DNA from: Planctomycetota bacterium
GTDB taxonomy: Bacteria > Planctomycetota > B15-G4 > JADJEK01
NCBI GenBank assembly: GCA_044225365.1
Contig: JBGAIQ010000002.1
Span: 116,451 to 180,450, forward strand
Length of the DNA: 64,000 nt
Direction: 5' to 3'
Shown here one piece after another: positions 3,475 to 62,497 of this stretch; position 1 is the stretch's first letter; every line of letters begins with the position of its first letter. Both the position numbers and the translations under genes were made by a program. The notes beneath the pieces are model-generated. The model made no database searches and had not been told where the DNA came from. It saw only the letters and a list, made by a program, of their open reading frames with translations.

Positions 3475-4761
3475 ATGACCGTCACCCGACCCTTGACCCT
3501 GCCCACGCTTCCACCCTCGCTTCCATCCTCTTCGCTTCGAGTGGCGCTCCACCGAGCGTTCTTCCTCGCGAGTTTGGTCGTTGCGTGCGGAGGATGCGAG
3601 CGCTCGCAGGAGGAGTGGTACTCCGACCTTCGCGCGGACGATGCCTACGATCGACGCCTCGCCGTCGTCGCGCTCGCCCAGGGCGGGGCGCTCGGCGTGC
3701 GCGAAGCCGCGGGCGTGCTCGCGGCGAAGCGCGATCACGACAAGTTGGTCGCCATCTCAGCGGGGCGAGAGTGTCGCGACTACGCCCGCCGCGAGGCCTC
3801 CGTCTTCGTGAACGTCGTCCTCGCGACGGATGCCGAACTCGAAGGACGCGCGATCCCGGCGCGCGCGATCCGACTCGACGCTGCGGAGATCGTGATCGAG
3901 GAAGGGACGAAGACGGAATCGCAGGCGCTCTACGAAGCGATCGTCCGCAAGCCGCCGATCCTCGGCGCGGAGATCTTGGAGATCGCATCGAACACCTTCG
4001 CGCGGATGGGTCGACGCAGCCTTCTCGTGCTCGAACAGGCGATCGCTGCGCAACGTCCCGTAGAGCAGTTGCTCGTGTTCCGAGTGCTCGCGAGTTCACT
4101 GGGGCTCGATGACGCCGCGGAACAGCAAGCCGCTCTCGACTTCGTGAAGGCGCACGAGATCGCCTCGCAGTTCCCCAAGCTCTTCATCGCGCAGTCGTTC
4201 GCGAATCCCTCGCTCGCGAGCACGATCGGCATCGAGGCCTGCGGCGAATACGCGGTCGCGGTGCGGCCGGGTTACGTCGCGCGACTCGTCTCCGACTTCG
4301 CGAGCGGCGGGCCCGGGGGAAGCGACGTCTCGTTACGAGCGGGGGAATCGCTCGCGAGGCTCGGACCGCTCGCGGCGGCCTGCATCGCACCGCTGCTCGA
4401 GGACTCGAATCCGGCGATCGTGCGCGCCGCGATCCGCACCTTCGCTCGTCTCGAATCGGGGCCGGCGCGACTCGCCGCACTCGCCTCGCTCGACCCGCGC
4501 GCCGAGTCGGACAAGGAGGCCTTCCGCAGTCTGGCATCGGCGATGAAGGAAGCGGACGTCGACGAACTCTTGAAACTCAGCGGGGACCGCAACGCCGAGT
4601 CGAGGATGCGCGCCGCGATGATCTTCGCATCGCTCGCAATGGGAGCATTCGGCGGACGGCTCGAAGTCGCGATCGACCGGCTGGCGCATGATCCGAATGG
4701 CGAGGTCGCCGCGATCGCCCACACGGCGCCGAAGCGAGATCGCAGCAATGGCGGGAAGTGA
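3475..4761 (+). CDS. HEAT/armadillo-type repeat lipoprotein (hypothetical)
   Basis: The ORF has an ATG at 3475. A hydrophobic stretch ends in VVACGGC, which is lipobox-like. The rest consists of alpha-helical repeats rich in A, L and R. The third codon position is strongly GC-biased. Confidence 0.65.
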   Translation: MTVTRPLTLPTLPPSLPSSSLRVALHRAFFLASLVVACGGCERSQEEWYSDLRADDAYDRRLAVVALAQGGALGVREAAGVLAAKRDHDKLVAISAGRECRDYARREASVFVNVVLATDAELEGRAIPARAIRLDAAEIVIEEGTKTESQALYEAIVRKPPILGAEILEIASNTFARMGRRSLLVLEQAIAAQRPVEQLLVFRVLASSLGLDDAAEQQAALDFVKAHEIASQFPKLFIAQSFANPSLASTIGIEACGEYAVAVRPGYVARLVSDFASGGPGGSDVSLRAGESLARLGPLAAACIAPLLEDSNPAIVRAAIRTFARLESGPARLAALASLDPRAESDKEAFRSLASAMKEADVDELLKLSGDRNAESRMRAAMIFASLAMGAFGGRLEVAIDRLAHDPNGEVAAIAHTAPKRDRSNGGK

Positions 4762-4771
4762 ACGACCGCAC

Positions 4772-4879
4772 GGACCGCCGGGCCGGACCGGCATGGATAT
4801 GCGGACCGCCGGGCTCCGCCCGGCATCTTCTTGAAGGCGCCAGGCCCGTCTCCTTGGACCGCCGGGCTCTGCCCGGCAT
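4772..4879. repeat. Three tandem copies of a 23-24-bp mini-palindrome (GGACCGCCGGGC-N3-GCCCGGCAT) immediately after the stop codon
   Basis: Copies lie at 4772-4794, 4803-4826 and 4856-4879. Each contains the GCCGGGC/GCCCGGC inverted repeat. Confidence 0.7.
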
Positions 4880-4999
4880 CTCATGAAGTCTACGGGCCCA
4901 AGCCCCGGCGCTTCGTTCTCCGCAACGAGCCCAATGGGATCGATAGGAATAAGGTCGCTCTGCGTGCCGGTATTTGTCTCTTCTACACGTTGGTCTTGC

Positions 5000-5494
5000 T
5001 CAAGAGATCCACCACATGTGGTCCTCGGTCACGATCCAAACTCCACTCCGTCGCTCGACCGTATACGTGTTTCCCGATGCGCTCAACCCGCCCTCGAAAT
5101 ATCCGCCCTCGACCTCGACCTTGTCGTCACCGATCCATTTGATTTCTCCCACGTTGAAAGACAGGCCCTTTGCGCCATCTATCTTGTGATGAATGCGAGT
5201 GTCGAGGGGGGACTGCGCGCCTGCGGAGCCCGGCAACACACGCGGCGAGATGTCTTTGAATCTCGCGAGAAACTGCGGGGTCGGGTCTACCTTACCGCCG
5301 TCGATCGAGATGAAGTAGTATCGCACTTTATTCTGCGCCGCAGATGCGTTGTGCTCGAATTCGTAGCGGAAGACTGCTTCGCGGACGTCATCGACCTCGG
5401 CGCGTCGCCGTTCTTCCTGTCGCGCCTCCGGACTCATGCATGCGAACGCAAGGAAAGCGCAGGCCAGAAACGCGACAGCAGCGCGAACGGACAT
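5000..5494 (-). CDS. Small lipoprotein (hypothetical), within the lower-GC island
   Basis: The ATG at 5494 begins MSVRAAVAFLACAFLAFACMS, a signal peptide with a lipobox. The product is 164 aa. Local GC is clearly lower than in flanking DNA. Confidence 0.5.
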   Translation of the reverse strand: MSVRAAVAFLACAFLAFACMSPEARQEERRRAEVDDVREAVFRYEFEHNASAAQNKVRYYFISIDGGKVDPTPQFLARFKDISPRVLPGSAGAQSPLDTRIHHKIDGAKGLSFNVGEIKWIGDDKVEVEGGYFEGGLSASGNTYTVERRSGVWIVTEDHMWWIS

Positions 5495-6133
5495 GAGAGA
5501 TCCTTTCGATTGAGCGCACGGCGAACGCGGAGACAGAGAAGCGACTGAACGCGCTAAGGGTGTTACGTGGTCGCGGCCAAGACGGGTTCCAAGCGTTGAG
5601 CATCCTACCTCCCGTCCATCGTATTCTTCCGGCCGAGCACTGTGCTCCCCTCGGAGAAAGAGATGCGCCTTCGGGGCCGAGGCGGCGAGAAGGACGAGAT
5701 CGGCGACGTCGGTGCCGAGGATATCGACTGCGTGCCGGCGTCGGTGATCGTGCGCGAGTACGTGCGACCGCCGTACGCGAGCCGGATCGCCCCCCTCGAT
5801 CGCCCCGATTCGGCTGGGGGGCTGGGGGGCGACCGCGTAGACCATCCTCAGGGCGGCTCGCAACCGCTAGTAACCAACAGGGGACTGTTCGGATCCCATC
5901 CGACTCGGGGTGGGGCGGGCGTGACCACGAGCAGGGTGGATTCGCGTGATGGGCGTGGCCCGGCGGTACGCCGGGAACAGTCGCTCGAGCCGATGTTCGC
6001 CGTTGCTTCGATCCCGTCTCGCCTGATAAAAGCACAGTCCGAATGTGACTCCGCAATGAACTCGGCCTGCAAAATTCCCGCATTTGTGGCGGATGTCGAG
6101 CTTCTCTTTTCGAGCACCCGTAGGCAGCCGCCC

Positions 6134-7606
6134 ATGAACAACCGCGTCGTTCGCAGTTCGGTCTTCATCGCGTTCTTCACGACCGCCTTCGGTTCGTCTA
6201 TCGGCGTTGCTCCATCCGCCCACGCCCAGTCGATGAAAACTCGCGTTGGCAACATCGAACTCGAACGGGGTGTCCCAACCGAACAAAGCGCGCATGAGCT
6301 GTTCGACAGCATGGATTTCCAGCGTGCCTGCCAGGCGTATCTTTGGGCGCTGCCCGCTGTCGGGTTCGAGTATGTACTCCGTGAACAAAGGAATGAGCTC
6401 GGCGCAAGAAACGGGGACGTCGTCGTTTGCAAGGGCTACCGAGACGTGAGTCGGTTCCTCACGCCGAATGTCACCACGCCTTATATCATCGGCTTCATGG
6501 ATCTGGCGGAAAGCGGACCGATGATGCTGCAAGTTCCCGAAGGTGCGATCGCCGGATCGGCGATGGACTTCTGGCAGCGCCCAATCACCGACTTCGGCAT
6601 GACGGGTCCGGATCAGGGCAAAGGAGGGCTGTATCTCCTGGTCGGGCCGGGGCAGTCGCTGCCTTCGCAGTTGCCCCCGGCGGCAATCGTCGTTCGATCG
6701 CCGACGTTCGGCGTTGGCTTCTTCTACCGCGCGCTCGACACCGATCCGGCGAAGGCCGAAGCGATGGAAAAGGCCATCCGCACCTACCCGTGGTCGCAGC
6801 GTGACAATCCGCGCGAGACACAACACCTCAAGCCCAACGCGCCGCAGACAGCGACCTTGCCTCGTGGTATGGAGTACTGGGAACAGTTGGCTGCCGTGAT
6901 CAACCGCGAACCCGTGGATGACCGTGATCGGTTCTTCGTGGCGATGCTCAGACCGTTGGGTATCGAACGCGGAAAGGAATTCAAGCCAGACGAGCGGCAG
7001 CGCCAATTATTGAAGGAAGGTGCTCAGGTTGGCGAGTTGATGGCGATGGCGAATTCCTTCGACAAGCGATTCCCTGGTTCGCGGTATCAACCGAATGCTC
7101 ACTGGGATTACGTCATCATGGCGGATCCGGCGCAGGACCTTCCGGACTACAGCCAGCTCGATGAGCGCGGGGCCTACTTCTACGAAGCTGTTGCCCTGTC
7201 GAAGGGGATGGTCACGAAGACACCAGGGGTCGGTCAGGCTTATCTAGGAAGTTATCGCGACAAGAACGGGCACGCCTTCGATGGAGGACTGTCCTACCGG
7301 CTCCGCGTGCCACCGCATCCGCCCGCCAAGCAGTTCTGGTCGGTGACGGTCTATGACACGCAGACGCGCGGCATCATTCAGAACACGCAACAGATCGCGG
7401 ATCGTTCTTCCCGGCAGGATCTGGTCACGAATGCGGATGGATCCGTAGATATATACTTTGGGCCAACGGCGCCCGCGGGCCTCGAAAAGAACTGGATTCC
7501 CACCGTTCCCGGCGGATCGTGGTTCGCCTACTTTCGTCTCTACGCCCCGTTGGAGCCGTATTTCGACCGAACCTGGCCGCTTCCGGACATCGAACTCGTG
7601 AAATGA
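6134..7606 (+). CDS. Secreted DUF1254/DUF1214-family protein (hypothetical)
   Basis: The ATG at 6134 begins MNNRVVRSSVFIAFFTTAFGSSIGVAPSAHAQ, a signal peptide. The C-terminal half carries an FWSVTVYD-type motif that I recall as typical of DUF1214. This assignment is from memory, not a search. Confidence 0.6.
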   Translation: MNNRVVRSSVFIAFFTTAFGSSIGVAPSAHAQSMKTRVGNIELERGVPTEQSAHELFDSMDFQRACQAYLWALPAVGFEYVLREQRNELGARNGDVVVCKGYRDVSRFLTPNVTTPYIIGFMDLAESGPMMLQVPEGAIAGSAMDFWQRPITDFGMTGPDQGKGGLYLLVGPGQSLPSQLPPAAIVVRSPTFGVGFFYRALDTDPAKAEAMEKAIRTYPWSQRDNPRETQHLKPNAPQTATLPRGMEYWEQLAAVINREPVDDRDRFFVAMLRPLGIERGKEFKPDERQRQLLKEGAQVGELMAMANSFDKRFPGSRYQPNAHWDYVIMADPAQDLPDYSQLDERGAYFYEAVALSKGMVTKTPGVGQAYLGSYRDKNGHAFDGGLSYRLRVPPHPPAKQFWSVTVYDTQTRGIIQNTQQIADRSSRQDLVTNADGSVDIYFGPTAPAGLEKNWIPTVPGGSWFAYFRLYAPLEPYFDRTWPLPDIELVK

Positions 7607-7631
7607 CACCCGTATTATTCTCATACAAACC

Positions 7632-8948
7632 ATGAAGACTATCTACCTCCGATTCGTTGCCGCATTCGCGTTGATCCTGACGGCGTTTCCTGCGGCCCGC
7701 GCGCAGGTTCCTGACAAGCAGACCTTGACCGACGCCTACGTCTATTTGCTCGGCCGCGCCATCGCCATCCGGCAGGAGCAGACGGACCTCAAGGAGCCGG
7801 GCATCGACTACAACGTCATCAAGTACAACCCAGCGGGGTCCGCGGATTTCGTGAACCCGAATCTCGACGTCGCCTACCTCGAAGCGTGGATCGCCGTCGA
7901 CGACAACACGCCGGCGGTGCTCGAGGTGCCGGAAGTGAAGGGGCGCTATTACACGGCGCAGATTCTCGACGAGTGGGGCGAGGTCATCACGAACATCAAC
8001 GAGCGCAATTATCCGACGCATCCGTTCGGTAGGTTTGCATTCGTCGCGCCCGGCTCCACGGCAACCGTCCCTTCGGACGCCGCCCGCATCGAATTGCACT
8101 CGCGCAAGGCCAAGTTGCTCGGGCGAGTGGAGCTGAAGACGGACCCTACCGGCGCGATGGCCTTGCAGAAGCAGTTCAAACTCACACCCCTCGGCAAGCC
8201 GGTCATCCAGCCCGCCGCTCCGATGGCGTCGTTCGGGAACGAGAAACTGATTGGGGTGGAGCTGTTCGACAACGTCGATGCAGTGTTGGCCAGCGCGCTG
8301 GATGTGTCGCCGATCGCAGCTCAGATGCAGGCCAAGGCACGAGACATCGGCCGGCAAGTCAAGGATGCTGGGAAGCGCCAGGCGATCGACAAGATGATCA
8401 AGGATGACGTAGTCCCTCAGTTCCTCCGGTACGCCGTCACGAAATCGGGTGCGTTCCAGAACAACTGGCTCGCGACACTAGGCACAGGCAACTATGGCGC
8501 CGACTACTGGAAGCGCAGTTCGGCGAACCTGGTCGGACTCTGGGCGAACGCCAACGACGAAGTGATCTACTTCGTCGCCACGCGGGATGCCGACGGTCAA
8601 CCGCTCAATGGCGCGAACGACTATGTGCTCGAGTTCTCTCCCGCGAACCGGCCAGACGCCGTGGTGAATGCCTACTGGTCGGTGATCCTCGTGGATGTGC
8701 CCGACTACCGGGTCGTGAAGAATCCGCTGAACCGTTTCAACTTCAACAGCGATTCAGGCCTGAAGAGCGAGGCCGACGGTTCGCTGAAGATCCTCTTTTC
8801 TTCGAAGCCGAATTCGGCTGTGCCGGAATCCAACTGGTTGCCGTCCGCGCCCGCCAAGGGATTCTCCCTCACGCTGCGAACCTACGTCCCCAAAGACCTC
8901 GTCAAGCGTGGTGAGTGGTTCCCCCCGGCAATCAAACGGCTGAACTGA
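7632..8948 (+). CDS. Secreted DUF1254/DUF1214-family protein (paralogue of 6134..7606)
   Basis: The ATG at 7632 begins with signal peptide MKTIYLRFVAAFALILTAFPAARAQ. It has the same overall architecture as the preceding gene, including a YWSVILVD motif, and sits in tandem with it. Confidence 0.6.
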   Translation: MKTIYLRFVAAFALILTAFPAARAQVPDKQTLTDAYVYLLGRAIAIRQEQTDLKEPGIDYNVIKYNPAGSADFVNPNLDVAYLEAWIAVDDNTPAVLEVPEVKGRYYTAQILDEWGEVITNINERNYPTHPFGRFAFVAPGSTATVPSDAARIELHSRKAKLLGRVELKTDPTGAMALQKQFKLTPLGKPVIQPAAPMASFGNEKLIGVELFDNVDAVLASALDVSPIAAQMQAKARDIGRQVKDAGKRQAIDKMIKDDVVPQFLRYAVTKSGAFQNNWLATLGTGNYGADYWKRSSANLVGLWANANDEVIYFVATRDADGQPLNGANDYVLEFSPANRPDAVVNAYWSVILVDVPDYRVVKNPLNRFNFNSDSGLKSEADGSLKILFSSKPNSAVPESNWLPSAPAKGFSLTLRTYVPKDLVKRGEWFPPAIKRLN

Positions 8949-9085
8949 GGGGCGTGAACGCCGCGTCAATGCGGAAGGACTGGAACGCGTTACCCAGCCG
9001 TGCGCCACGACGCTGGGCGCTCTTCGGCATCCGTCACGCCGAGGATAGTCGCTTCGGATCGATGTCGGACTCGACGTCATAAGAC

Positions 9086-9370
9086 CTACGCAGTCGATGG
9101 ATTTCCCGAAACGGTGACTTTCACGGTGGTCGCTCCGCGTAGTGCCTTCGTCCCTCCCCGGGGCGACATGCTTTCCACCCCGTGCGGCGTGAGTATCGCG
9201 ATGTCGGTCTCGTGGCCGATCCGGAATAGGACGTCGCGGAAGTAGATCTTCGGATCGAGCCCGACCGCTGGCCAGTTCATTCGACTCGCGGCGAACGGTC
9301 GAAGCCCGCACTCGGCGCGGTTGTTATCGAACCCGGTCCGACCGTCGTCGAGGAAGGTCTGTAGCGCCGC
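9086..9370 (-). pseudogene. IS66-family transposase C-terminal remnant
   Basis: The minus-strand translation reads FLDDGRTGFDNNRAECGLRPFAASRMNWPAVGLDPKIYFRDVLFRIGHETDIAILTPHG. This matches the conserved IS66 TnpC C-terminus (FLDDGR.xxDNNxAER...R.N..F.GS...LDPxxYLRDVLxRI...I..LLPW). It is only about 95 codons long and is followed by unrelated sequence. Confidence 0.55.
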
Positions 9371-9451
9371 GCATTGATTCCGTCTGTAGCGGCGGGAAAG
9401 ACCCTTTACTGCTGGTGCCCTGGAGCGGGCACGAGACCGATCCCGAGAAAG

Positions 9452-9893
9452 GACGCGCGATCCCGGCGCGCGCGATCCGACTCGACGCTGCGGAGATCGT
9501 CATCGAGGAAGGGACGAAGACGGATTCGCAGGCGCTCTACGAAGCGATCGTCCGCAAGCCGCCGATCCTCGGCGCGGAGACCTTGGAGATCGCATCGAAC
9601 ACCTTCGCTCGGATGGGTCGACGCAGTCCTCTCGTGCTCGAACAGGCGCTCGCCGCGCAGCGCCCTGTGGAGCAGTTGCTCGTCTTCCGAGTGCTCGCGA
9701 GTTCGCTGGGGCTCGATGACGCCGCGGAACAGCAAGCCGCTCGATGATCTTCGCGTCGCTCGCCGTGGGAGCGTTCGGAGGACGGCTCGAAGTCGCGATC
9801 GACCGGCTGGCACACGATCCGAACCCGGAGGTCGCCGCGATCGCCCACACGGCGCCGAAGCGAGATCGCAGCAACGGCGGGAAGTGAACGACC
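9452..9893 (+). pseudogene. Truncated, internally deleted duplicate of the HEAT-repeat lipoprotein gene (3475..4761)
   Basis: 9452-9740 is about 95 % identical to 3843-4130. 9742-9893 is near-identical to 4615-4764. The N-terminal 368 bp and an internal 484 bp are missing, and the reading frame switches at the junction. The identical post-stop sequence (CGACCGCACGGACCGCCGGGCCGGACCGGCAT) follows both copies. Confidence 0.75.
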
Positions 9894-9958
9894 GCACGGA
9901 CCGCCGGGCCGGACCGGCATCTTACTAATGATGCCGGGCGGAGCCCGGCGGTCCGAGA
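9892..9958. repeat. Long inverted repeat (about 24-bp stem, 9-nt loop) built from two copies of the GGACCGCCGGGC...GGCAT mini-palindrome
   Basis: GGACCGCCGGGCCGGACCGGCAT, then CTTACTAAT, then GATGCCGGGCGGAGCCCGGCGGTCC. The second arm is the reverse complement of the repeat at 4803-4826. Confidence 0.65.
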
Positions 9959-9965
9959 GGAGCGC

Positions 9966-11582
9966 TCAGCGCTTTTCGAGCCAGGGGCGGATGAAGTTCG
10001 CGAGGGCCTCGCCCACGATCTCGTTGCCGCGGCGGTTGAGGTGGGTATCGCGCAGGGAGTAGACGTGATGTTTGCCGTCGGGGGGTGACTTCGGGGGAGG
10101 CGCGCTTCGCAACAACGGGAGGAGGTCGAGGTAGGGGATGTTCGCCGCGTCGAAGAACTCTTTGAGCAAGCGTTGGGGCCGATCGCGATCGAGCGCGAAT
10201 CCAGCGGCGCTCTTCTCGACCGAGTTCCACAAGTCGTCCTCGACCTGGAATTCGTCCGGGATGATCACGCAGACGAGGGGGATTCGCCCGGCTCCCTGCT
10301 GCATCGCCCGCAGGGCGGCGAACATGGCGTCGGGAGGGGGCGAGTCGACTCGACATGCGCCGAGCGCGCGAATCACTTCGGTATTCAGGAAACGGCCGGG
10401 CGTCATCGTCTCCCGTTCGAGCGCGGGGTCGTCGAGCCACGGGAAGTGGCGGGCGAGTGCAACGGGATCGTTCGAATCACCCGCCGGAATCGCATGCTCG
10501 CCCGCGATCTCACCCGCGGCACGACCGAGCTCTCCCGACTCGGCATCGGCGATCCACAGCCGGCGCGGCACCTGGTAGAGCAGAAGATTCTCGGTGTCGA
10601 GCCAGTCGCCGCCGAACGACGAACCCGCGAATCGCCCCGCGGCGTCGAGGAAGTCGTTACCGACGAACAGCGACACGACGATGAGGTCGGGAGCGAGAGC
10701 GGAGACGTCGGATTGCAGCAGGTCGGCGTATTCGAACGGTCCGATGCCGGGCAGTCCGACGTTGCACACCTCGGCGCCGGTCTCTCGCTCGCACACGGTT
10801 CCGAAATGGAAGTAGTGCGGCACGATCCCGACGACGAACGAATCGCCGATCAGCGCGACGCGGGGCTTGTCCGCCGCACCCTTCTGCCGCGGCTGCCATT
10901 CGTCGTCGTAGAACCCGCCCGAGTTGCAACGGAAACCGAAGCGATTCGTCCCCGGCGCATAGCGGGCCGCCGCGACGGCGTCGCTCACGCTTCCCGAGGC
11001 GCGTGAGAAGATCGGCGACGGCTTCCAATGCGCGAAGATGCGCAGCGTGATCTCGCAGCAGAGGGCGAGCAGGCAGATCTGGAACAGGGCGAACCCGAAG
11101 CCGCTCCGAAGTCGTCGCGGCAGGGTCCGCTCGAGCCATGGCGAAAGGAGTCGCCACGAAACGAAGGCGAGCGATGCCGTCGCCAGGATCAAGAGCCCTT
11201 CCATGCGCCGATACGGTTGGACGAGCACGATCCCGGCGATCGACGACCCGATGCAGCAGACGAACGCCGCGCGCAGCAGCCCGCCGATGGATGTTGAGAC
11301 GGTCCCGCGCACGCGCCGCATTGCGACCCCGCCCGCCGCGATGCCCGCAGCCAGGATTGCGAGGAGCGCGACGTATCGCAGGTCGTAGATCGCGTACATC
11401 GGCAGTCGCCGCTGGAGCAGGTGTACCGTGACGTACACCAGATCCGCGAGCGCCGCAACGAGAAGGGCCGTCTCGGCCCAGTGCGCGAGCGAACGCGTGC
11501 CGCGCTCCCTCGGCGCGAGGGAATCGCTCACGTCATCGCTTTCTCGTTTCATCGCGGAAGGCTGCATCGCACTCGACATCAT
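9966..11582 (-). CDS. Membrane-anchored SGNH/GDSL-type hydrolase (AlgX/AlgJ-like architecture)
   Basis: The N-terminal third has several hydrophobic helices. The C-terminal domain has ALIGDSFVVG (GDS(L) block I) and RDTHLNRRGNEIV (the DxxH block). Confidence 0.65.
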   Translation of the reverse strand: MMSSAMQPSAMKRESDDVSDSLAPRERGTRSLAHWAETALLVAALADLVYVTVHLLQRRLPMYAIYDLRYVALLAILAAGIAAGGVAMRRVRGTVSTSIGGLLRAAFVCCIGSSIAGIVLVQPYRRMEGLLILATASLAFVSWRLLSPWLERTLPRRLRSGFGFALFQICLLALCCEITLRIFAHWKPSPIFSRASGSVSDAVAAARYAPGTNRFGFRCNSGGFYDDEWQPRQKGAADKPRVALIGDSFVVGIVPHYFHFGTVCERETGAEVCNVGLPGIGPFEYADLLQSDVSALAPDLIVVSLFVGNDFLDAAGRFAGSSFGGDWLDTENLLLYQVPRRLWIADAESGELGRAAGEIAGEHAIPAGDSNDPVALARHFPWLDDPALERETMTPGRFLNTEVIRALGACRVDSPPPDAMFAALRAMQQGAGRIPLVCVIIPDEFQVEDDLWNSVEKSAAGFALDRDRPQRLLKEFFDAANIPYLDLLPLLRSAPPPKSPPDGKHHVYSLRDTHLNRRGNEIVGEALANFIRPWLEKR

Positions 11583-14703: not shown

Positions 14704-14937
14704 TCGAACTTCCTTCACGGGCGTGTGCGGCGGCGCGACGCCGTGCGCTGGCGCGTGGCGATGCTGGAACGTTCGGCGTATCCTGGACCCACTCGATGAG
14801 GCTTTCGTGAGATTCATCGAGCAGTGGCCGAGGAATCGCGGAACGCATCGGTGCACGGCTCGTAAACACGCGCCCGACCTTCGGCACGGTCCGATTCCGT
14901 TCTTACGTCCCCGGGATTTCGAGGAGATCCACCCGTT

Positions 14938-15912
14938 ATGCGCACCACCCTTCGCAAACTCTCGATCGCCGCCATCGCGGCAACCTTGCTCGCCGGGTCG
15001 GCCCTGGCCGGCGACTCCTGGCTCACGAGCTACAAGGACGCGCTCGCCAAGTCGAAGGAAACGAAATTGCCGGTGATGGCGGACTTCACCGGGAGCGACT
15101 GGTGCCACTGGTGCATCTCGCTGAAGAAGGAAGTCTTCGACACCGACGAGTTCAAGAAGTGGGCCGCGGACCACGTGATCCTGCTCGAACTGGACTTCCC
15201 GCAGGGCAAGAAGCTGAGCAAGGAGCTCACGAAGCAGAACGAAGACCTGAAGGCGAAATTCAACATCGAGGGCTTTCCGACGCTCGTCTTCCTGAACGGC
15301 GACGGCAAGGAACTCGGTCGCGGCGGCTACGTCGAAGGCGGTCCCAAGCCGTGGATCGAGGCGGCGGAGAAAGCCATGAAGGGCGAGCCGAAGGACGCCG
15401 CGAAGGCGCCCGAGGCGAAGGCCGGCGAGGACAAGGGCCCGTGGATCGAGAGCTGGGACGATGCCGTCAAGCGCTCGAAGAAGGAAGGCAAGATGATCCT
15501 TGCCGACTTCACGGGCAGCGACTGGTGCCCCTGGTGCATCAAGCTCCACGACGAGGTGTTCAACACGCCAGAGTTCAAATCGTGGGCGAGCGCCAACGTC
15601 GTGCTGCTGCTCCTCGACTTCCCGCATCACGAACAGGCCGATTCGATCAAGAAGCAGAACGAGAAACTGCAATCGAAGTACGGGATCCAGGGCTTCCCGA
15701 CCGTCCTCTTCCTCGACGCCGCGGGCAAGAAGAAGGGACAGATGGGTTATGAAGCGGGCGGTCCGAAGCCGTGGATCGAGAAGGCCGCGAAGATCGCAGG
15801 CAACAAGAAGCCGGCGCCGGCTCCCAAAGACGCGCCCGCGAAGGATTCGAAGGACGGCGAGAAGACCGACCCGAAGGCGGGCGGCACCGATCAGAAGCCC
15901 ACGAAGAACTGA
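14938..15912 (+). CDS. Secreted tandem thioredoxin-like (Thioredoxin_7/DUF255-like) protein with two CxxC motifs
   Basis: The signal peptide is MRTTLRKLSIAAIAATLLAGSALA. There are two repeats of LPVMADFTGSDWCHWC / MILADFTGSDWCPWC, each followed by a thioredoxin-fold helix. The C-terminus is rich in K, P and A. Confidence 0.8.
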   Translation: MRTTLRKLSIAAIAATLLAGSALAGDSWLTSYKDALAKSKETKLPVMADFTGSDWCHWCISLKKEVFDTDEFKKWAADHVILLELDFPQGKKLSKELTKQNEDLKAKFNIEGFPTLVFLNGDGKELGRGGYVEGGPKPWIEAAEKAMKGEPKDAAKAPEAKAGEDKGPWIESWDDAVKRSKKEGKMILADFTGSDWCPWCIKLHDEVFNTPEFKSWASANVVLLLLDFPHHEQADSIKKQNEKLQSKYGIQGFPTVLFLDAAGKKKGQMGYEAGGPKPWIEKAAKIAGNKKPAPAPKDAPAKDSKDGEKTDPKAGGTDQKPTKN

Positions 15913-46083: not shown

Positions 46084-46194
46084 GTCGGAACTCTACATCG
46101 ACCGTTCTGAATTTTCAATAAAACATGAAAGTAGAAAAACGATCGAGCCGAAGTCGGCCTCGTCCTCATGCGCAGTCGCGCCGCCCGCTTCTGC

Positions 46195-46440
46195 GATCAC
46201 GCGTGCTCTTGTCGGGACCGATCCGGAGTTCTCCACGGAGGTTCACGGAGGTAAGAGGAGGCCCACGGAGGCCAGGAGGTATGAAAGGGGGCGGTCTCGG
46301 CGGTCCTGACGAATGCGGGCGCCAACGAGATCGCGTCGGGTTCGGCGGACGGCCCCTTTTGAACTTCTGCTCTTCTCCGACCTCCGTGGTCCTCCTCTGA
46401 CCTCCGTGGTCCTCCGTGTGAAATGAACGACTCCGTCCAC
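46195..46440. repeat. Solo copy, in inverted orientation, of the 250-275-bp palindrome-rich repeat family that forms the array at 59885-60745
   Basis: CGGGACCGATCCGGAGTTCTCCACGGAGGTTCACGGAGGTAAGAGGAGGCCCACGGAGG is the reverse complement of CCTCCGTGGTCCTCCTCTTACCTCCGTGAACCTCCGTGGCAAACTCCGGATCGGTCCC from the array. It also contains GACCTCCGTGGTCCTCCTCTGACCTCCGTGG. Confidence 0.7.
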
Positions 46441-46510
46441 ACGGACAGCCGCCCATTGCCCCTTGCATCAGCGCCTGCGGTCGTTTGGATTACGCGCGGA
46501 GGCAGCTTTC

Positions 46511-59884: not shown

Positions 59885-60745
59885 GGGCGATCTCCTTGGC
59901 GCCCACATTCGTGAGGACCGCCGAGCCGGCCCCCGACCGCATCCGTGAACGCAGAAGCATGCGTCGTGGCTGTCCGTGACGGCGAAGTCGATCGTTTCAC
60001 ACGGAGGGCCACGGAGGTCAGAGGAGGGCCACGGAGGTCGGAGAAGAACGGATCTTTCAAAGGGGGCCGTCCGCCGCCCGCGCTGCGATCTCCTTCGCGC
60101 CCGCCTTCGTGAGGACCGCCGAGCCGGCCCCCTTTCCTACTTCCTGACCTCCGTGAACCTCCGTGGCAAACTCCGGATCGATCCCCGCCAGTGCGTGCGG
60201 GAATGCGCAAGCGAGCGTTCCGGCTGTCCGTGACGGCGAAGTCGATCGTTTCACACGGAGGGCCACGGAGGTCAGAGGAGGGCCACGGAGGTCGGAGAAG
60301 AGCAGAAGTTCAAAAGGGGCCGTCCGCTTCTCGCGACGCGATCTCCTTCGCGCCCGACTTCGTGAGGACCGCCGAGCCGGCCCCTTTTCCTACTTCCTGA
60401 CCTCCGTGGTCCGCCTCTTACCTCCGTGAACCTCCGTGGCAAACTCCGGATCGGTCCCCGCCAGTCCGTGCGGGAATGCGCAAACGAGCGTTCCGGCTGT
60501 CCGTGTGGACGAAGTCGATCGTTTCACACGGAGGGCCACGGAGGTCAGAGGAGGGCCACGGAGGTCGGAGAAGAACGGATCTTTCAAAGGGGCCGTCCGC
60601 CGCCCGCGCCGTGATCTCCTTCGCGCCCGCGTTCGTGAGGACCGCCGAGCCGGCCCCCTTTCCTACTTCCTGACCTCCGTGGTCCTCCTCTTACCTCCGT
60701 GAACCTCCGTGGCAAACTCCGGATCGGTCCCTGCGGATGCGCACG
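59885..60745. repeat. Tandem array (about 3.3 copies) of a 250-275-bp unit rich in internal inverted repeats
   Basis: The block CCGTG(ACGGC/TGGAC)GAAGTCGATCGTTTCACACGGAGGGCCACGGAGGTCAGAGGAGGGCCACGGAGGTCGGAGAAG recurs at about 59973, 60222 and 60497. The block GATCTCCTTCGCGCCCGCCTTCGTGAGGACCGCCGAGCCGGCCCCCTTTCCTACTTCCTGACCTCCGTG recurs at about 59888, 60088, 60340 and 60613. Units differ by a 21-bp indel. They are internally self-complementary (CACGGAGGTCAG pairs with CTGACCTCCGTG). Confidence 0.8.
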
Positions 60746-60811
60746 CGAATGCAGAAGCAGGCGTCGCGCAGCGGAGAAGAGAGGGTCGTTCGCTAGAAGA
60801 GCTTGCCGCGA

Positions 60812-62497
60812 TCAGGAACTCGAAGCGCGCGTCCGGTAGCGGTCGGGGTTGTCGAGGGCGTCGGAGATCAGGGCGCGCAGGCGCGCGATGTCCTGGCTGT
60901 CGAGTGCGGAGACCAGCTCGCCGCCGTGGCGCGCCGCGATGGGCGCGAAGTCGTCCGGGTTCACCCGGTCCTTCTTGTTGAACAGGAGCAACGTCGGCTT
61001 CTCGAGGAGATCGAGGTCGGCGAGCGTGCGACGCACTGCATCGAGGTGTTCGACCACCGCGGGATTGGCCGCGTCGGCGACGTGGACGAGAACGTCCGCC
61101 TCGGAGAGACCTTCGAGCGTCGCGCGGAACGCGTTCACCAGATCGCGTGGAAGATCGCGGATGAAGCCCACCGTATCGGTCAGTACCACGTGGTCGGTCC
61201 GATCCGGGATGTACATCTGGCGCGCGGTCGGATCGAGCGTCGCGAAGAGCTTGTCCTCCGCGATCACGTGCGCGCCGGTGAGGCAGTTGAACAGCGTCGA
61301 CTTGCCGGCGTTGGTGTAGCCGACGAGCGACACGACTCGCGTGTTCGCGCGCTCGCGCTGCTTGCGTTGCTCATGGCGTCGCTTGGAGAGCTGCTCGATC
61401 CGCTTCTCGAGTTCGGAAATGCGATCGCGGATGTGACGCCGCGTCATCGCTGCCGCCGTCTCACCGCCACCGACCATCGCGCCGATGCCGCCGCCACCGA
61501 TGCGCGATCGCGTGCCGCGCTCGAGTGAGACGCGAGGCATGTCGTACTTGAGCCGTGCGAGCTCGACTTGCATCTTGCCGTCGGTCGACTGCGCGCGCTG
61601 CCCGAAGATGTCGAGGATCAACGCGGTGCGATCGACGATCTTCAATCGCAGGTTGCTCTCCAGATTACGGGCCTGGACCGGCGACAGCTCGCGATCGAAT
61701 ACGATGATGTCGGCGTTGGCGCGAATGGCGTGGAGTTCGACTTCCTCGACCTTGCCCGAGGTCAGGTACGAAGCGGGATCGATGCGTCGCAACTTCACGG
61801 GGAGGCGTTCGACGACCGCGCAACCGGCCGAACGCGTCAGCTCCGAGATCTCCGCGATCGCATCCTCCATGTTGATCCCGGGGCCGTCCTCGAGGGCGAC
61901 GACCATCGCCCGCGTCTTGCCTTTGACGTCGCGAACCTTGGGCGCGCGCTCCGCGAACTCGCGTTCGAGCAGTGCGATCGCCTGCGCGAAGTCCTGCGGC
62001 ACGTTCTCGAGTCGGATGTCCTCCGATTCCTCGTACGTCTGTCCCGATGGATTGGGCGGCATCAGCTTGGCGATTCGCACCATCTTGCAGGTGCTGTTGC
62101 CGAGCGCGCGGACTTCGACGAGGGAATCGAGTCGGAAGTGCTGGAGGTCGGCGAGGTCGTTCTTGTTGATCGAGTGATCCTTCGTCCCGCGAACTTCGTC
62201 GATGACCGTCTCGACGAGACGGATCCCGCAGAGGCGACCCGACGCGCGACGCGTCGGTGGGGGCTGCGGCACCTCGAGGTGGGTCGCGCTCCCGAGGATG
62301 ACGTGCTCGACCTCACCCGCGCGATTCACGTAGAGGCCGATGCGTCGATTGAGCTTCACCGAGAGCGCCGCGAGCTCGTGGGCGAGGTCGGTGCTGATGT
62401 ACTGTTCGCGGGGGATCCGGCGTTCCGCGAGACGCTCCAGGTGTTCGATCTCGCTCTTCTTCAGTCCTAGCGTCTTGCCGTAGATCTCAGTCTTCAT
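60812..62497 (-). CDS. hflX: GTPase HflX with an N-terminal extension of about 190 aa
   Basis: The G-domain blocks are GYTNAGKSTLFN, DTVGFI and NKKD. They are preceded by the HflX N-terminal domain (IVFDRELSPVQARNLE). Confidence 0.85.
   Translation of the reverse strand: MKTEIYGKTLGLKKSEIEHLERLAERRIPREQYISTDLAHELAALSVKLNRRIGLYVNRAGEVEHVILGSATHLEVPQPPPTRRASGRLCGIRLVETVIDEVRGTKDHSINKNDLADLQHFRLDSLVEVRALGNSTCKMVRIAKLMPPNPSGQTYEESEDIRLENVPQDFAQAIALLEREFAERAPKVRDVKGKTRAMVVALEDGPGINMEDAIAEISELTRSAGCAVVERLPVKLRRIDPASYLTSGKVEEVELHAIRANADIIVFDRELSPVQARNLESNLRLKIVDRTALILDIFGQRAQSTDGKMQVELARLKYDMPRVSLERGTRSRIGGGGIGAMVGGGETAAAMTRRHIRDRISELEKRIEQLSKRRHEQRKQRERANTRVVSLVGYTNAGKSTLFNCLTGAHVIAEDKLFATLDPTARQMYIPDRTDHVVLTDTVGFIRDLPRDLVNAFRATLEGLSEADVLVHVADAANPAVVEHLDAVRRTLADLDLLEKPTLLLFNKKDRVNPDDFAPIAARHGGELVSALDSQDIARLRALISDALDNPDRYRTRASSS

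Follow-up and report, generated by a model that had tools for sequence, protein, structure and literature searches.

In the window, by which we mean the whole 64-kb stretch of DNA that was analysed, an intact gene for a HEAT-like lipoprotein (copy A) is separated from a truncated second version of its 3' part (copy B) by 4654 bp of DNA (4795-9448, referred to as the island). Copy B is followed by a gene for an SGNH/AlgX-like hydrolase on the opposite strand. The features of the locus are as follows.

3475..4761, plus strand: copy A, intact HEAT-like lipoprotein gene, 428 aa (open reading frame with host-like GC3 of 0.81; weak HEAT_2 match)
3842..4135, plus strand: repeat block 1 of copy A (95% identity with 9449-9742)
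4616..4794, plus strand: repeat block 2 of copy A (93% identity with 9742-9920), covering the stop codon and the 33 nt behind it, with the left hairpin arm at 4771-4794
4802-4827 and 4855-4880, plus strand: two further direct copies of a GC-rich hairpin motif at the left edge of the island (motif limited to the two island borders)
5000..5494, minus strand: small lipoprotein gene, 164 aa, lipobox LAFAC (translation, GC3 0.70; origin uncertain)
5603..5794, plus strand: N-terminal zinc-finger remnant of an IS66 transposase (TnpC), cysteines lost (PF13005 zf-IS66 at 5681-5779, E=0.0019)
6118..8959, plus strand: two-gene cassette spread horizontally (82-86% nucleotide identity to ~15 loci, confined to these coordinates)
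6134-7606, plus strand: DUF_A, predicted secreted DUF1254+DUF1214 protein, 490 aa (Pfam PF06863 and PF06742)
7632-8948, plus strand: DUF_B, predicted secreted DUF1254+DUF1214 protein, 438 aa (Pfam PF06863 and PF06742)
9164..9424, minus strand: C-terminal remnant of an IS66 transposase (TnpC) with a 22-residue internal deletion (PF03050 at ~9200-9330, E=8e-8; the open frame continues to ~9089)
9425..9448, no strand: putative illegitimate joint between the truncated IS66 and the 5'-shortened copy B (last IS66 match at 9424, homology to copy A from 9449)
9449..9887, plus strand: copy B, probable displaced 3' part of the HEAT gene, pseudogene (5'-truncated; 481-nt frameshifting internal deletion at 9742)
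9897..9955, no strand: putative ancestral terminator hairpin common to the convergent HEAT and SGNH genes (-55.5 kcal/mol, z=-6.8)
9966..11582, minus strand: SGNH/AlgX-like hydrolase gene, conserved partner of the HEAT gene (Pfam ALGX)

The two gene ends and the terminator hairpin

Copies A and B share two blocks, 3842-4135 with 9449-9742 (294 nt, 14 differences) and 4616-4794 with 9742-9920 (179 nt, 12 differences), with no difference in the 33 nt that follow the stop codon. The initial annotation had recognized this post-stop identity and had placed the repeats at 3843-4130 and 4615-4800 against 9452-9740 and 9742-9925; both observations stand, with the limits refined as given here. No third copy of the repeat was found within the 64-kb window. 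In copy B, 367 nt are missing from the start of the gene (3475-3841) and a further 481 nt internally (4136-4616), where a 1-nt overlap at 9742 joins the two blocks and the reading frame is shifted; both losses had been seen before, at sizes of 368 and 484 bp that needed correction. The duplicated segment measures 473 nt at present and ~953 nt when the internal deletion is restored. On the left, the homology begins abruptly at 9449, the sequence upstream of which is unlike that upstream of 3842, and on the right it stops at 4794, which corresponds to the loop of the hairpin.

Among the 26 differences between the copies, 19 are synonymous and 7 non-synonymous (dS 0.19, dN 0.022, omega 0.12, P=7e-7), and the HEAT gene of copy A is by all appearances under purifying selection. 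Divergence is concentrated in 4002-4701, at 10% versus 1.6% outside (16 of 2000 permutations reach as much), giving a bimodal pattern in which the central 219 nt hold 22 differences and the outer 253 nt only 4 (2 synonymous and 2 non-synonymous). Because the differences are mostly synonymous and clustered, they are allelic, between two functional alleles, rather than the result of decay. The decay of the duplicate that had been proposed earlier therefore describes the two deletions but not the point differences. Their synonymous bias and their concentration in 4002-4701 further indicate that a diverged functional allele contributed sequence. A hand count of third-position GC, as a guide to which copy came in, gave G or C in copy B at 11 of 16 GC-changing third-position differences, which is not significant.

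The hairpin at 9897-9955 folds better than all of 200 shuffled sequences, and the region after copy A, which retains the left arm only, folds no better than its shuffles (z=-1.4). Copy B is at the ancestral position, because the terminator hairpin shared by the convergent genes is kept there. The GC-rich motif of this hairpin, GGACCGCCGGGC-N3-GCCCGGCAT, occurs five times in the 64 kb, always at the island borders, with no further copies in the window and no exact match among metagenome contigs. At the left edge, the copy at 4802-4827 repeats the right hairpin arm (9930-9955) in inverted orientation over 26 nt without a mismatch, and it lies 7 nt inside the island. Insertion at the 3' end of the gene, as suggested by the initial annotation, is thus supported, and the site falls within the loop of the terminator hairpin.

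Composition and content of the island

Over ~4800-9200, the GC content drops from 0.65-0.70 to 0.57-0.63. In 1-kb windows, the island holds the lowest GC of the whole window (0.584, against a mean of 0.651 and an sd of 0.022), and it is also the strongest tetranucleotide outlier, with z up to 3.8. The lower GC between the copies had been noticed by eye, and the compositional comparison proposed for 4762-9451 does set the island apart from its flanks. From left to right, the island consists of the two extra hairpin motifs, the small lipoprotein gene, the N-terminal IS66 remnant, the DUF1254/DUF1214 cassette and the inverted C-terminal IS66 remnant. Given that the island is compositionally distinct and that the cassette proteins have relatives at 83-90% amino-acid identity in MAGs from four other phyla, while the best relatives of the host flanking genes reach at most 51%, the sequence supports reading the DNA between the copies as an acquired patchwork, in line with the cargo island proposed originally. 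No integrase or other recombinase was found when all ORFs of 60 aa or more in 4795-9448 were compared with Pfam, the window contains no tRNA or tmRNA, and Rfam gave no matches.

The two tandem secreted paralogues had been recognized correctly, and PF06863 and PF06742 score above the gathering threshold in both, although the first gene starts at 6134 rather than 5642. The proteins are VPA0735-like (homologue in PDB 2P3Y/3VB9, E=2e-111). A search for the taxonomic affinity of the cargo, also proposed at the outset, located relatives of the cassette in other phyla: at 82-86% nucleotide identity, it recurs in MAGs labelled Verrucomicrobiota, Acidobacteriota, Gammaproteobacteria and Nitrospirota, and on these grounds it behaves as a unit exchanged among at least five phyla. 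The cassette, with a GC of 0.60, is equal in GC and GC3 to the donor-type ~60%-GC loci, and no amelioration of its composition toward the host was seen. In these ~60%-GC loci the cassette matches its own flanks and adjoins a Reg_prop/Y_Y_Y sensor kinase. Judged from its sequence, the cassette is clearly of foreign origin. Its neighbours in other genomes are sensor kinases, response regulators and housekeeping genes; neither shared flanks nor mobile-element genes were found beside it there, the common part being 6118-8959 only. We rejected the sharp edges of this common part as proof of a defined mobile unit, since non-coding flanks cannot be aligned at such divergence.

The small lipoprotein listed among the cargo is a real gene, but it lies on the minus strand, overlapped by a plus-strand ORF without a coding signature. 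That ORF (orf221, 4883-5548) was rejected as a gene: its GC3 is 0.60, it belongs to no family and it overlaps the well-supported minus-strand gene. The small lipoprotein has 1519 homologues at E<1e-3, the best at 58% identity, and matches no Pfam or NCBIfam family; NCBIfam returned no family for any of five proteins.

Where the initial annotation had one IS66 C-terminal remnant at the island edge (9086-9370), that fragment is real and runs on the minus strand from 9424 to 9164, but a second, inverted fragment at 5603-5794 had been missed. The latter matches residues 93-156 of a Frigoriglobus TnpC (E=7.6e-5), and all six of its tblastn matches fall on IS66-family or putative transposase genes. 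The minus-strand remnant matches residues 425-533 of the 535-residue Acinetobacter TnpC (E=1e-9) and residues 404-451 of the Frigoriglobus protein (E=6e-6); the two Frigoriglobus stretches are the sole significant matches of that TnpC to the window in tblastn, and the TnpA and TnpB proteins of Acinetobacter and Frigoriglobus gave nothing significant against the window. The left fragment has lost sequence at both of its ends, and the outer part of the right one is replaced by copy B at 9449. No inverted repeat pairs the two fragments in a self-comparison of the window, and reading 8949-9088 by eye revealed no clear GTAAGCG-type IS end; the outer ends of the fragments are deleted. With two short, heavily degraded internal fragments and no tnpA or tnpB, a composite transposon or an active IS66 was rejected, and the fragments cannot be an active element. 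The IS66 pieces are probably fossils that helped to assemble or mobilise the cassette before insertion.

Ancestral arrangement and origin of the duplication

HEAT-SGNH pairing was seen in four other loci (L001, L003, L006 and L009). In L001 and L009, the two genes are convergent and adjacent, 57-63 nt apart, with hairpins, and the HEAT homologue beside SGNH in L001 is full-length (25% identity, E=3e-14). In L003 and L006/L007, the pairs are tandemly duplicated and co-directional, with identities of 61% between HEAT genes and 57-67% between SGNH genes. The ancestral locus was, as these comparisons clearly indicate, a convergent adjacency of the HEAT and SGNH genes. The empty site that the initial annotation had suggested looking for was therefore found, in distant relatives only (SGNH identity ~40%), because the host lineage is isolated and its HEAT protein has no word-indexed homologue. 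All proteins looked up are singleton clusters; neither the HEAT protein nor P0001 has an exact-sequence record; a genome-contig scan with the HEAT protein gave no relative and a word-indexed protein search no hit; and the closest SGNH relative (51% identical) comes from a 2-kb contig that carries no convergent HEAT gene. The collections searched contained neither a close relative nor a donor with both the allele and the cargo, and the sister allele was not observed.

We give about an even chance to an insertion of the island by homologous recombination that displaced the resident 3' end downstream (3'-end displacement). That recombination rather than transposition produced the duplication is supported: a direct duplication flanks the insert with its upstream copy intact, and the 9448/9449 junction is not a transposase-made end because it is sharp, lacks homology and abuts an internally truncated IS66. 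Of the IS- or recombination-mediated insertion considered initially, the recombination part is thus retained and transposition is not, the junction abutting a broken IS66 and the outer junctions not being IS ends. The order of events that we infer, together with the crossover and the sister-lineage donor in it, would start from the convergent pair with one common terminator hairpin. The incoming DNA, probably from a sister lineage, would have borne its own HEAT 3' part, from ~3842 to the hairpin loop. It could have entered as a circularised fragment through a single crossover within the ~950-bp homology, or as a linear fragment through homologous recombination at one end and illegitimate joining at the other. 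Either route would keep an intact gene upstream and shift the resident 3' part to the downstream side of the insert, with the IS66/copy B joint at 9425-9448 as the non-homologous (illegitimate) junction, and the 481-bp frameshifting deletion in copy B would have come later. Against 3'-end displacement, the sharp 9448/9449 junction shows no microhomology that reaches 3 nt, where the 3-10 bp typical of HFIR joints might be expected, nothing encoded in the 4.65 kb explains circularisation or transfer, and the hairpin-motif copies at the left edge are left unexplained.

The patchy divergence also fits a younger duplication in situ, with the ~1.6% of the outer parts as its baseline, after which homologous recombination with a relative ~10% apart replaced ~700 bp in the middle of one copy. 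Such a duplication might come from reintegration of an element with a captured gene end of the same lineage, or from a replication or template-switch error at insertion. Imported tracts a few hundred bp long are commonplace in bacteria, and the bimodal divergence (outer 4/253 nt, central 22/219 nt) would follow directly. We consider this course of events unlikely, although it deserves to be kept in mind, since it requires one extra event and a tract that straddles exactly the part later deleted in copy B; most of its steps are common with 3'-end displacement, and the two are hard to separate from one genome. The tandem HEAT-SGNH pairs in L003 and L006/L007 raise another alternative, in which old tandem paralogues under long selection were later separated by foreign DNA and IS66, with deletion of SGNH-A and of the 5' part of copy B. 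Synonymous-biased divergence would be expected if both copies were functional, yet the pairs in the relatives are co-directional and old, whereas the present genes converge and their copies share 95% identity, with outer parts that differ by just 1.6%. The homology past copy A, moreover, ends in the hairpin loop and not in the 3' end of an SGNH gene, of which no second trace is present, and near-identical direct repeats 5 kb apart are unstable, making this history improbable.

It is also rather improbable, to a slightly greater degree, that the hairpin motif was a recombination target and not merely a terminator, with the island or an earlier version of it inserted by a hairpin-targeting enzyme or a structure-dependent process. 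The source, an NCBI assembly with a 275-kb contig, may be a MAG, so that alleles of two co-occurring strains, 5% apart, might have been stitched into one contig, and strain variants would be expected to differ in this allele-like, synonymous-biased way. However, copy A, the island and copy B form one uninterrupted and unique sequence, and neither the 9448/9449 nor the 9742 junction has a long k-mer in common with copy A. A mis-join in the assembly graph would not create these junctions, which are therefore present in real molecules, and we regard an artefact as very unlikely. Least probable of all is site-specific integration that used the 3' end of the target gene as attachment site and later lost its integrase. 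DNA of foreign composition bracketed by direct repeats of a gene 3' end, with hairpin-motif copies at both borders, has that appearance, and the initial annotation had drawn the parallel to integrative elements. The parallel fails on the absence of any integrase, excisionase or recombinase domain from every ORF, with all 4654 bp otherwise accounted for, on the lack of a tRNA or tmRNA, on a ~953-bp repeat far longer than known att sites, and on a right end that is an internally broken IS66 and not the end of an element.

Comparison with known systems

In experiments in E. coli, single crossovers of recircularised fragments gave target-gene duplications of 109-950 bp (Amarir-Bouhram et al. 2011, PMC3240628). 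The present locus resembles such Campbell-type single crossovers or HFIR in its direct duplication around the insert (~953 bp here) and in having one junction without homology. Classic HFIR, for which PMC3240628 cites de Vries & Wackernagel 2002 as well as Prudhomme et al. 2002, produces a deletion, usually with 3-10 bp of microhomology, whereas here there is a duplication, no microhomology was found and the donor molecule was not observed. A 3'-end (C-terminal) displacement is known from rhs, CDI and T6SS effector-immunity loci (Kirchberger et al. 2017, PMC5361080, and Jackson et al. 2009 as cited there); at rhs loci and in T6SS effector-immunity arrays, modules that arrive push the resident 3' ends aside (PMC5361080). 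Shared with these systems are a homology anchor in a conserved upstream gene that stays intact, a resident 3' portion left downstream as an orphan, and the lack of an integrase. The displaced tips there are toxin or immunity variants in an adaptive and repeated process, in contrast to the single event here, which involves a near-identical allele of an ordinary lipoprotein and unrelated cargo.

In common with IS66-family insertion sequences and IS-flanked composite transposons, two inverted TnpC fragments bracket the cargo, and the IS end of the C-terminal fragment faces it. Unlike in such elements, only ~64 and ~110 residues are left of a transposase of ~520-535 residues, tnpA and tnpB are missing and the zinc-finger cysteines are lost; nor are there recognisable terminal repeats or 8-bp target duplications, and the outer junctions are not IS ends. 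Islands that target tRNA genes or gene 3' ends likewise place foreign DNA at the 3' end of a gene between direct repeats of that end, but the locus has no integrase and no tRNA, and its repeat exceeds an att site in length by an order of magnitude and shows allele-like divergence.

The locus is a fresh example of a known process, with an ordinary but well preserved footprint. It offers a clean natural case, from a very poorly sampled planctomycete-like lineage, of foreign DNA fixed without dedicated integration machinery, in which the homology of a resident gene would have done the work and the displaced gene end is the scar. A solved structure exists for VPA0735, and the Reg_prop/Y_Y_Y sensor kinase that adjoins the cassette in what appear to be its home genomes may hint at the function of the DUF1254/DUF1214 pair. 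The conserved pairing of the gene for the HEAT-like lipoprotein with that for the SGNH/AlgX-like hydrolase suggests joint action of the two products. Neither the spread of the cassette nor the HEAT-SGNH pairing alters the present understanding of gene transfer, and both may prove more useful than the scar itself.

The duplicated 3' end of the HEAT-like gene

Self-comparison of the window revealed two collinear direct repeats, one of 294 nt with 95% identity (3842-4135 and 9449-9742) and one of 179 nt with 93% identity (4616-4794 and 9742-9920), with no third copy in the 64 kb. They correspond to an intact HEAT-like lipoprotein gene (copy A) and a duplicate of its 3' part (copy B), from which the gene's first 367 nt and an internal 481 nt are missing. 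Copy B is a pseudogene, because its two blocks share 1 nt at 9742, where the frame shifts. Beyond the stop codon, the next 33 nt show no difference between the copies. The 4654 bp between them (4795-9448, the island) have a GC content of 0.57-0.63 versus 0.65-0.70 in the flanks, include the lowest value of the window (0.584 in 1-kb windows; mean 0.651, sd 0.022), and form its top tetranucleotide outlier (z=2.7-3.8 in 2-kb windows). The repeats and the composition thus bear out the initial annotation, in which a duplicated HEAT gene end surrounds a lower-GC stretch.

Features of the locus (window coordinates; for relatives, coordinates of the respective locus)
3475-4761, + strand: copy A, intact 428-codon ORF
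4771, 4802, 4855 (+), 9897 (+) and 9943 (-): copies of the hairpin motif
5000-5494, - strand: small lipoprotein, 164 residues, sequence MSVRAAVAFLACAFLAFAC..., GC3 0.70
5603-5794, + strand: second IS66 fragment, zf-IS66 domain, E=0.0019
6134-7606, + strand: DUF_A, first DUF1254/DUF1214 gene, ATG at 6134
7632-8948, + strand: DUF_B, second DUF1254/DUF1214 gene
9424 to 9164, - strand: IS66 C-terminal remnant, PF03050, E=8e-8
9449-9887, + strand: copy B
9897-9955: stable hairpin between the stops of copy B and SGNH, -55.5 kcal/mol, z=-6.8
9966-11582, - strand: SGNH/AlgX-like hydrolase gene (SGNH)
L001 1591-4473; L003 728-6639; L006 9469-14092; L009 700-3366: HEAT-SGNH pair in relatives

The loci of distant relatives show that the HEAT-like and SGNH/AlgX-like genes are a conserved pair. 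In L001 the two genes are convergent with a gap of 57 nt, and the gene next to SGNH encodes a protein that aligns end to end with the window HEAT protein (25% identity, E=3e-14). The corresponding convergent gene in L009 encodes a protein sharing 39% identity with that of L001. This pairing suggests a functional partnership, apparently undescribed. In the window, the stop of copy B is 78 nt from that of SGNH and the stable hairpin lies between them, while downstream of copy A the left arm alone remains and folds no better than shuffled sequences. Because the full hairpin follows copy B and only its left arm follows copy A, copy B, the hairpin and SGNH represent the undisturbed ancestral arrangement.

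The left edge of the island (4794/4795) falls within the hairpin loop. The motif GGACCGCCGGGC-N3-GCCCGGCAT, counted together with a variant, occurs five times in the window, every time at an island border, and 4802-4827 forms a perfect 26-nt inverted pair with 9930-9955. No exact match was found in metagenome contigs. A lineage-specific terminator or a REP-like element, borne on DNA of the same or a sister genome, may account for the motif; that it served as a recombination site is doubtful.

Other repeats lie elsewhere in the window. A non-coding unit of ~273 nt is repeated ~3.5 times in tandem at 59887-60768 (85-95% identity), in the intergenic region ahead of the gene at 60812-62497, and has an inverted copy 13.7 kb off at 46154-46451 (83-85% complementary). 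These units contain the short motif 'CCTCCGTGG' and have no match in Rfam. An internal repeat at 15079-15791 (420-423-nt period, 72-86% identity), within the ORF 14866-15912, looks by eye like a tandem-duplicated thioredoxin-like domain.

Gene content and foreign origin of the island

From the gene content initially annotated, the DUF gene pair and the IS66 C-terminal remnant were retained, and the claim of a single IS66 remnant was not. An ORF at 4883-5548 and a DUF_A start at 5642 were dropped. The plus-strand ORF was rejected as a gene (GC3 0.60, coding signature absent). In the representative library, 1519 proteins are homologous to the small lipoprotein at 5000-5494 (E below 1e-3; best 58% identity), a large family without a Pfam or NCBIfam model. 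DUF_A begins at 6134, the ATG with which its signal peptide starts, and is only 25-29% identical to DUF_B, so the two are old paralogues.

The right-hand IS66 remnant aligns with residues 425-533 of the 535-residue Acinetobacter TnpC, with a 22-residue internal deletion. The left-hand fragment (5603-5794) has lost the zinc-finger cysteines, and all six of its weak tblastn matches among plasmids are IS66-family or putative transposase genes. A TnpC query from the planctomycete Frigoriglobus gave exactly two significant matches in the whole window, residues 93-156 at 5603-5794 (+, E=7.6e-5) and residues 404-451 at 9403-9260 (-, E=6e-6), and tblastn with Acinetobacter and Frigoriglobus queries found no trace of tnpA or tnpB there. 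Lying on opposite strands at either side, the two fragments are therefore inverted, degraded remnants that bracket the DUF gene pair. They are probably a legacy of the assembly or carriage of this cassette before the insertion event, and may derive either from two separate copies or from a single copy split through inversion.

The host belongs to an extremely isolated lineage: the closest non-self relative of SGNH has 51% identity, the HEAT-like protein has no homologue in a word-indexed protein search or a genome contig scan, and the three window proteins looked up were singleton clusters. The self-matches of HEAT-A (3475-4761) and DUF_A are absent from the protein collection while SGNH, DUF_B and ABC-F of the same assembly are present; the two genes may be uncalled or flagged as pseudogenes in the source annotation.

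The cargo between the HEAT copies is foreign. DUF_A has many relatives with 84-88% identity. In species-representative genomes, cassette relatives at 82-90% come from MAGs labelled Steroidobacteraceae, Nitrospira, Verrucomicrobiaceae/Brevifollis and Thermoanaerobaculia, and Planctomycetota (Phycisphaerae) homologues reach 40-47% at most. MAG taxonomy of short contigs may mislead, but two of the cassette loci lie on contigs of 256 kb (L020) and 678 kb (L022). At the DNA level, 6118-8959 matches ~15 loci at 82-86% identity, and none of the surrounding window sequence matches them. Such sharp edges are no proof that a discrete mobile unit exists, because non-coding flanks would be unalignable at 85% coding identity. 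The composition of the window cassette (GC 0.602; GC3 0.72 and 0.82) is that found in the ~60%-GC loci L013, L015, L020, L022 and L023, where the flanks match the cassette; GC3 is 0.87-0.91 in the Thermoanaerobaculia loci and 0.76-0.92 in host genes of the window. In a Steroidobacteraceae MAG (L018, 6001-8416), the cassette has a GC of 0.616 versus 0.69 in its flanks, which suggests a recent acquisition there too. The foreign cassette and the outlier composition agree with the earlier proposal of an island acquired at the 3' end of the HEAT gene.

Origin of the duplication

Copies A and B differ at 26 positions, 20 of them third codon positions. With 19 synonymous and 7 non-synonymous changes (dS=0.19, dN=0.022, omega=0.12, Nei-Gojobori), the synonymous excess (P=7e-7) bears the signature of a pair of functional alleles that diverged under purifying selection, not of a decaying pseudogene. 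This bias contradicts the initial view of the differences as decay of the duplicate; copy B shows true decay only in its two deletions. Most differences (22 of 26) fall in 4002-4701, where 219 nt remain, split between the two sides of the deletion, and 10.0% of these differ; the outer 253 nt contain only four (1.6%). A scan statistic as high was reached in only 16 of 2000 permutations, indicating a mosaic history. Two histories would produce it: incoming and resident alleles that were themselves mosaic, or a young duplication whose centre was later overwritten by a homologous import from a ~10%-divergent relative. On either account, a diverged functional allele supplied part of the sequence.

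At the right end of the island, an internally broken IS66 gene meets an internally broken HEAT gene within 24 nt (9425-9448); this stretch is not homologous to what precedes 3842 and is therefore an illegitimate joint rather than a transposase-made end. The island is flanked by a direct duplication of a ~950-bp gene segment, and the upstream gene is intact. [quoted passage not shown] When this design was tried by conjugation in E. coli, single crossovers had given 109-950-bp duplications of the target gene in most recombinants, and genuine HFIR was seldom seen (PMC3240628). Orphan 3' ends at rhs loci and in T6SS effector-immunity arrays are natural parallels (PMC5361080). The flanking repeat and the illegitimate joint uphold the claim of duplication through recombination, and we favour 3'-end displacement, to which we give about an even chance.

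A young in-situ duplication followed by homologous import would also produce the mosaic, and we regard it as unlikely. Tandem duplication of the HEAT-SGNH pair does occur in L003 and L006/L007, where the pairs are co-directional and the duplicates are old, as indicated by 61% identity between HEAT copies and 57-67% between SGNH copies; that copies A and B are old tandem paralogues with insertion and deletion afterwards is improbable. An assembly chimera is very improbable. No integrase was found among island ORFs by Pfam, and no tRNA or other RNA feature by tRNA and Rfam searches, so the analogy with integrative elements drawn initially fails and an integrase-type island is the least probable of these alternatives. 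With 3'-end displacement favoured, the locus is a new and well-preserved case of a known process.

Neighbours and possible function of the cassette

DUF_A is homologous to VPA0735 (PDB 2P3Y/3VB9), deposited as an uncharacterised/hypothetical protein, and a search of one literature collection for the names DUF1254 and DUF1214 together found no paper. In four loci, which have ~60% GC and are mostly labelled Verrucomicrobiaceae (L013 346-8660, L020 950-8825, L022 6001-12245 and L023 5968-12351), the pair lies beside a Reg_prop/Y_Y_Y/PAS hybrid histidine kinase and LuxR-type response regulators, with no mobile-element genes nearby. In the window, the DUF pair arrived without this kinase. The kinase neighbourhood is a possible lead on what VPA0735-like proteins do.
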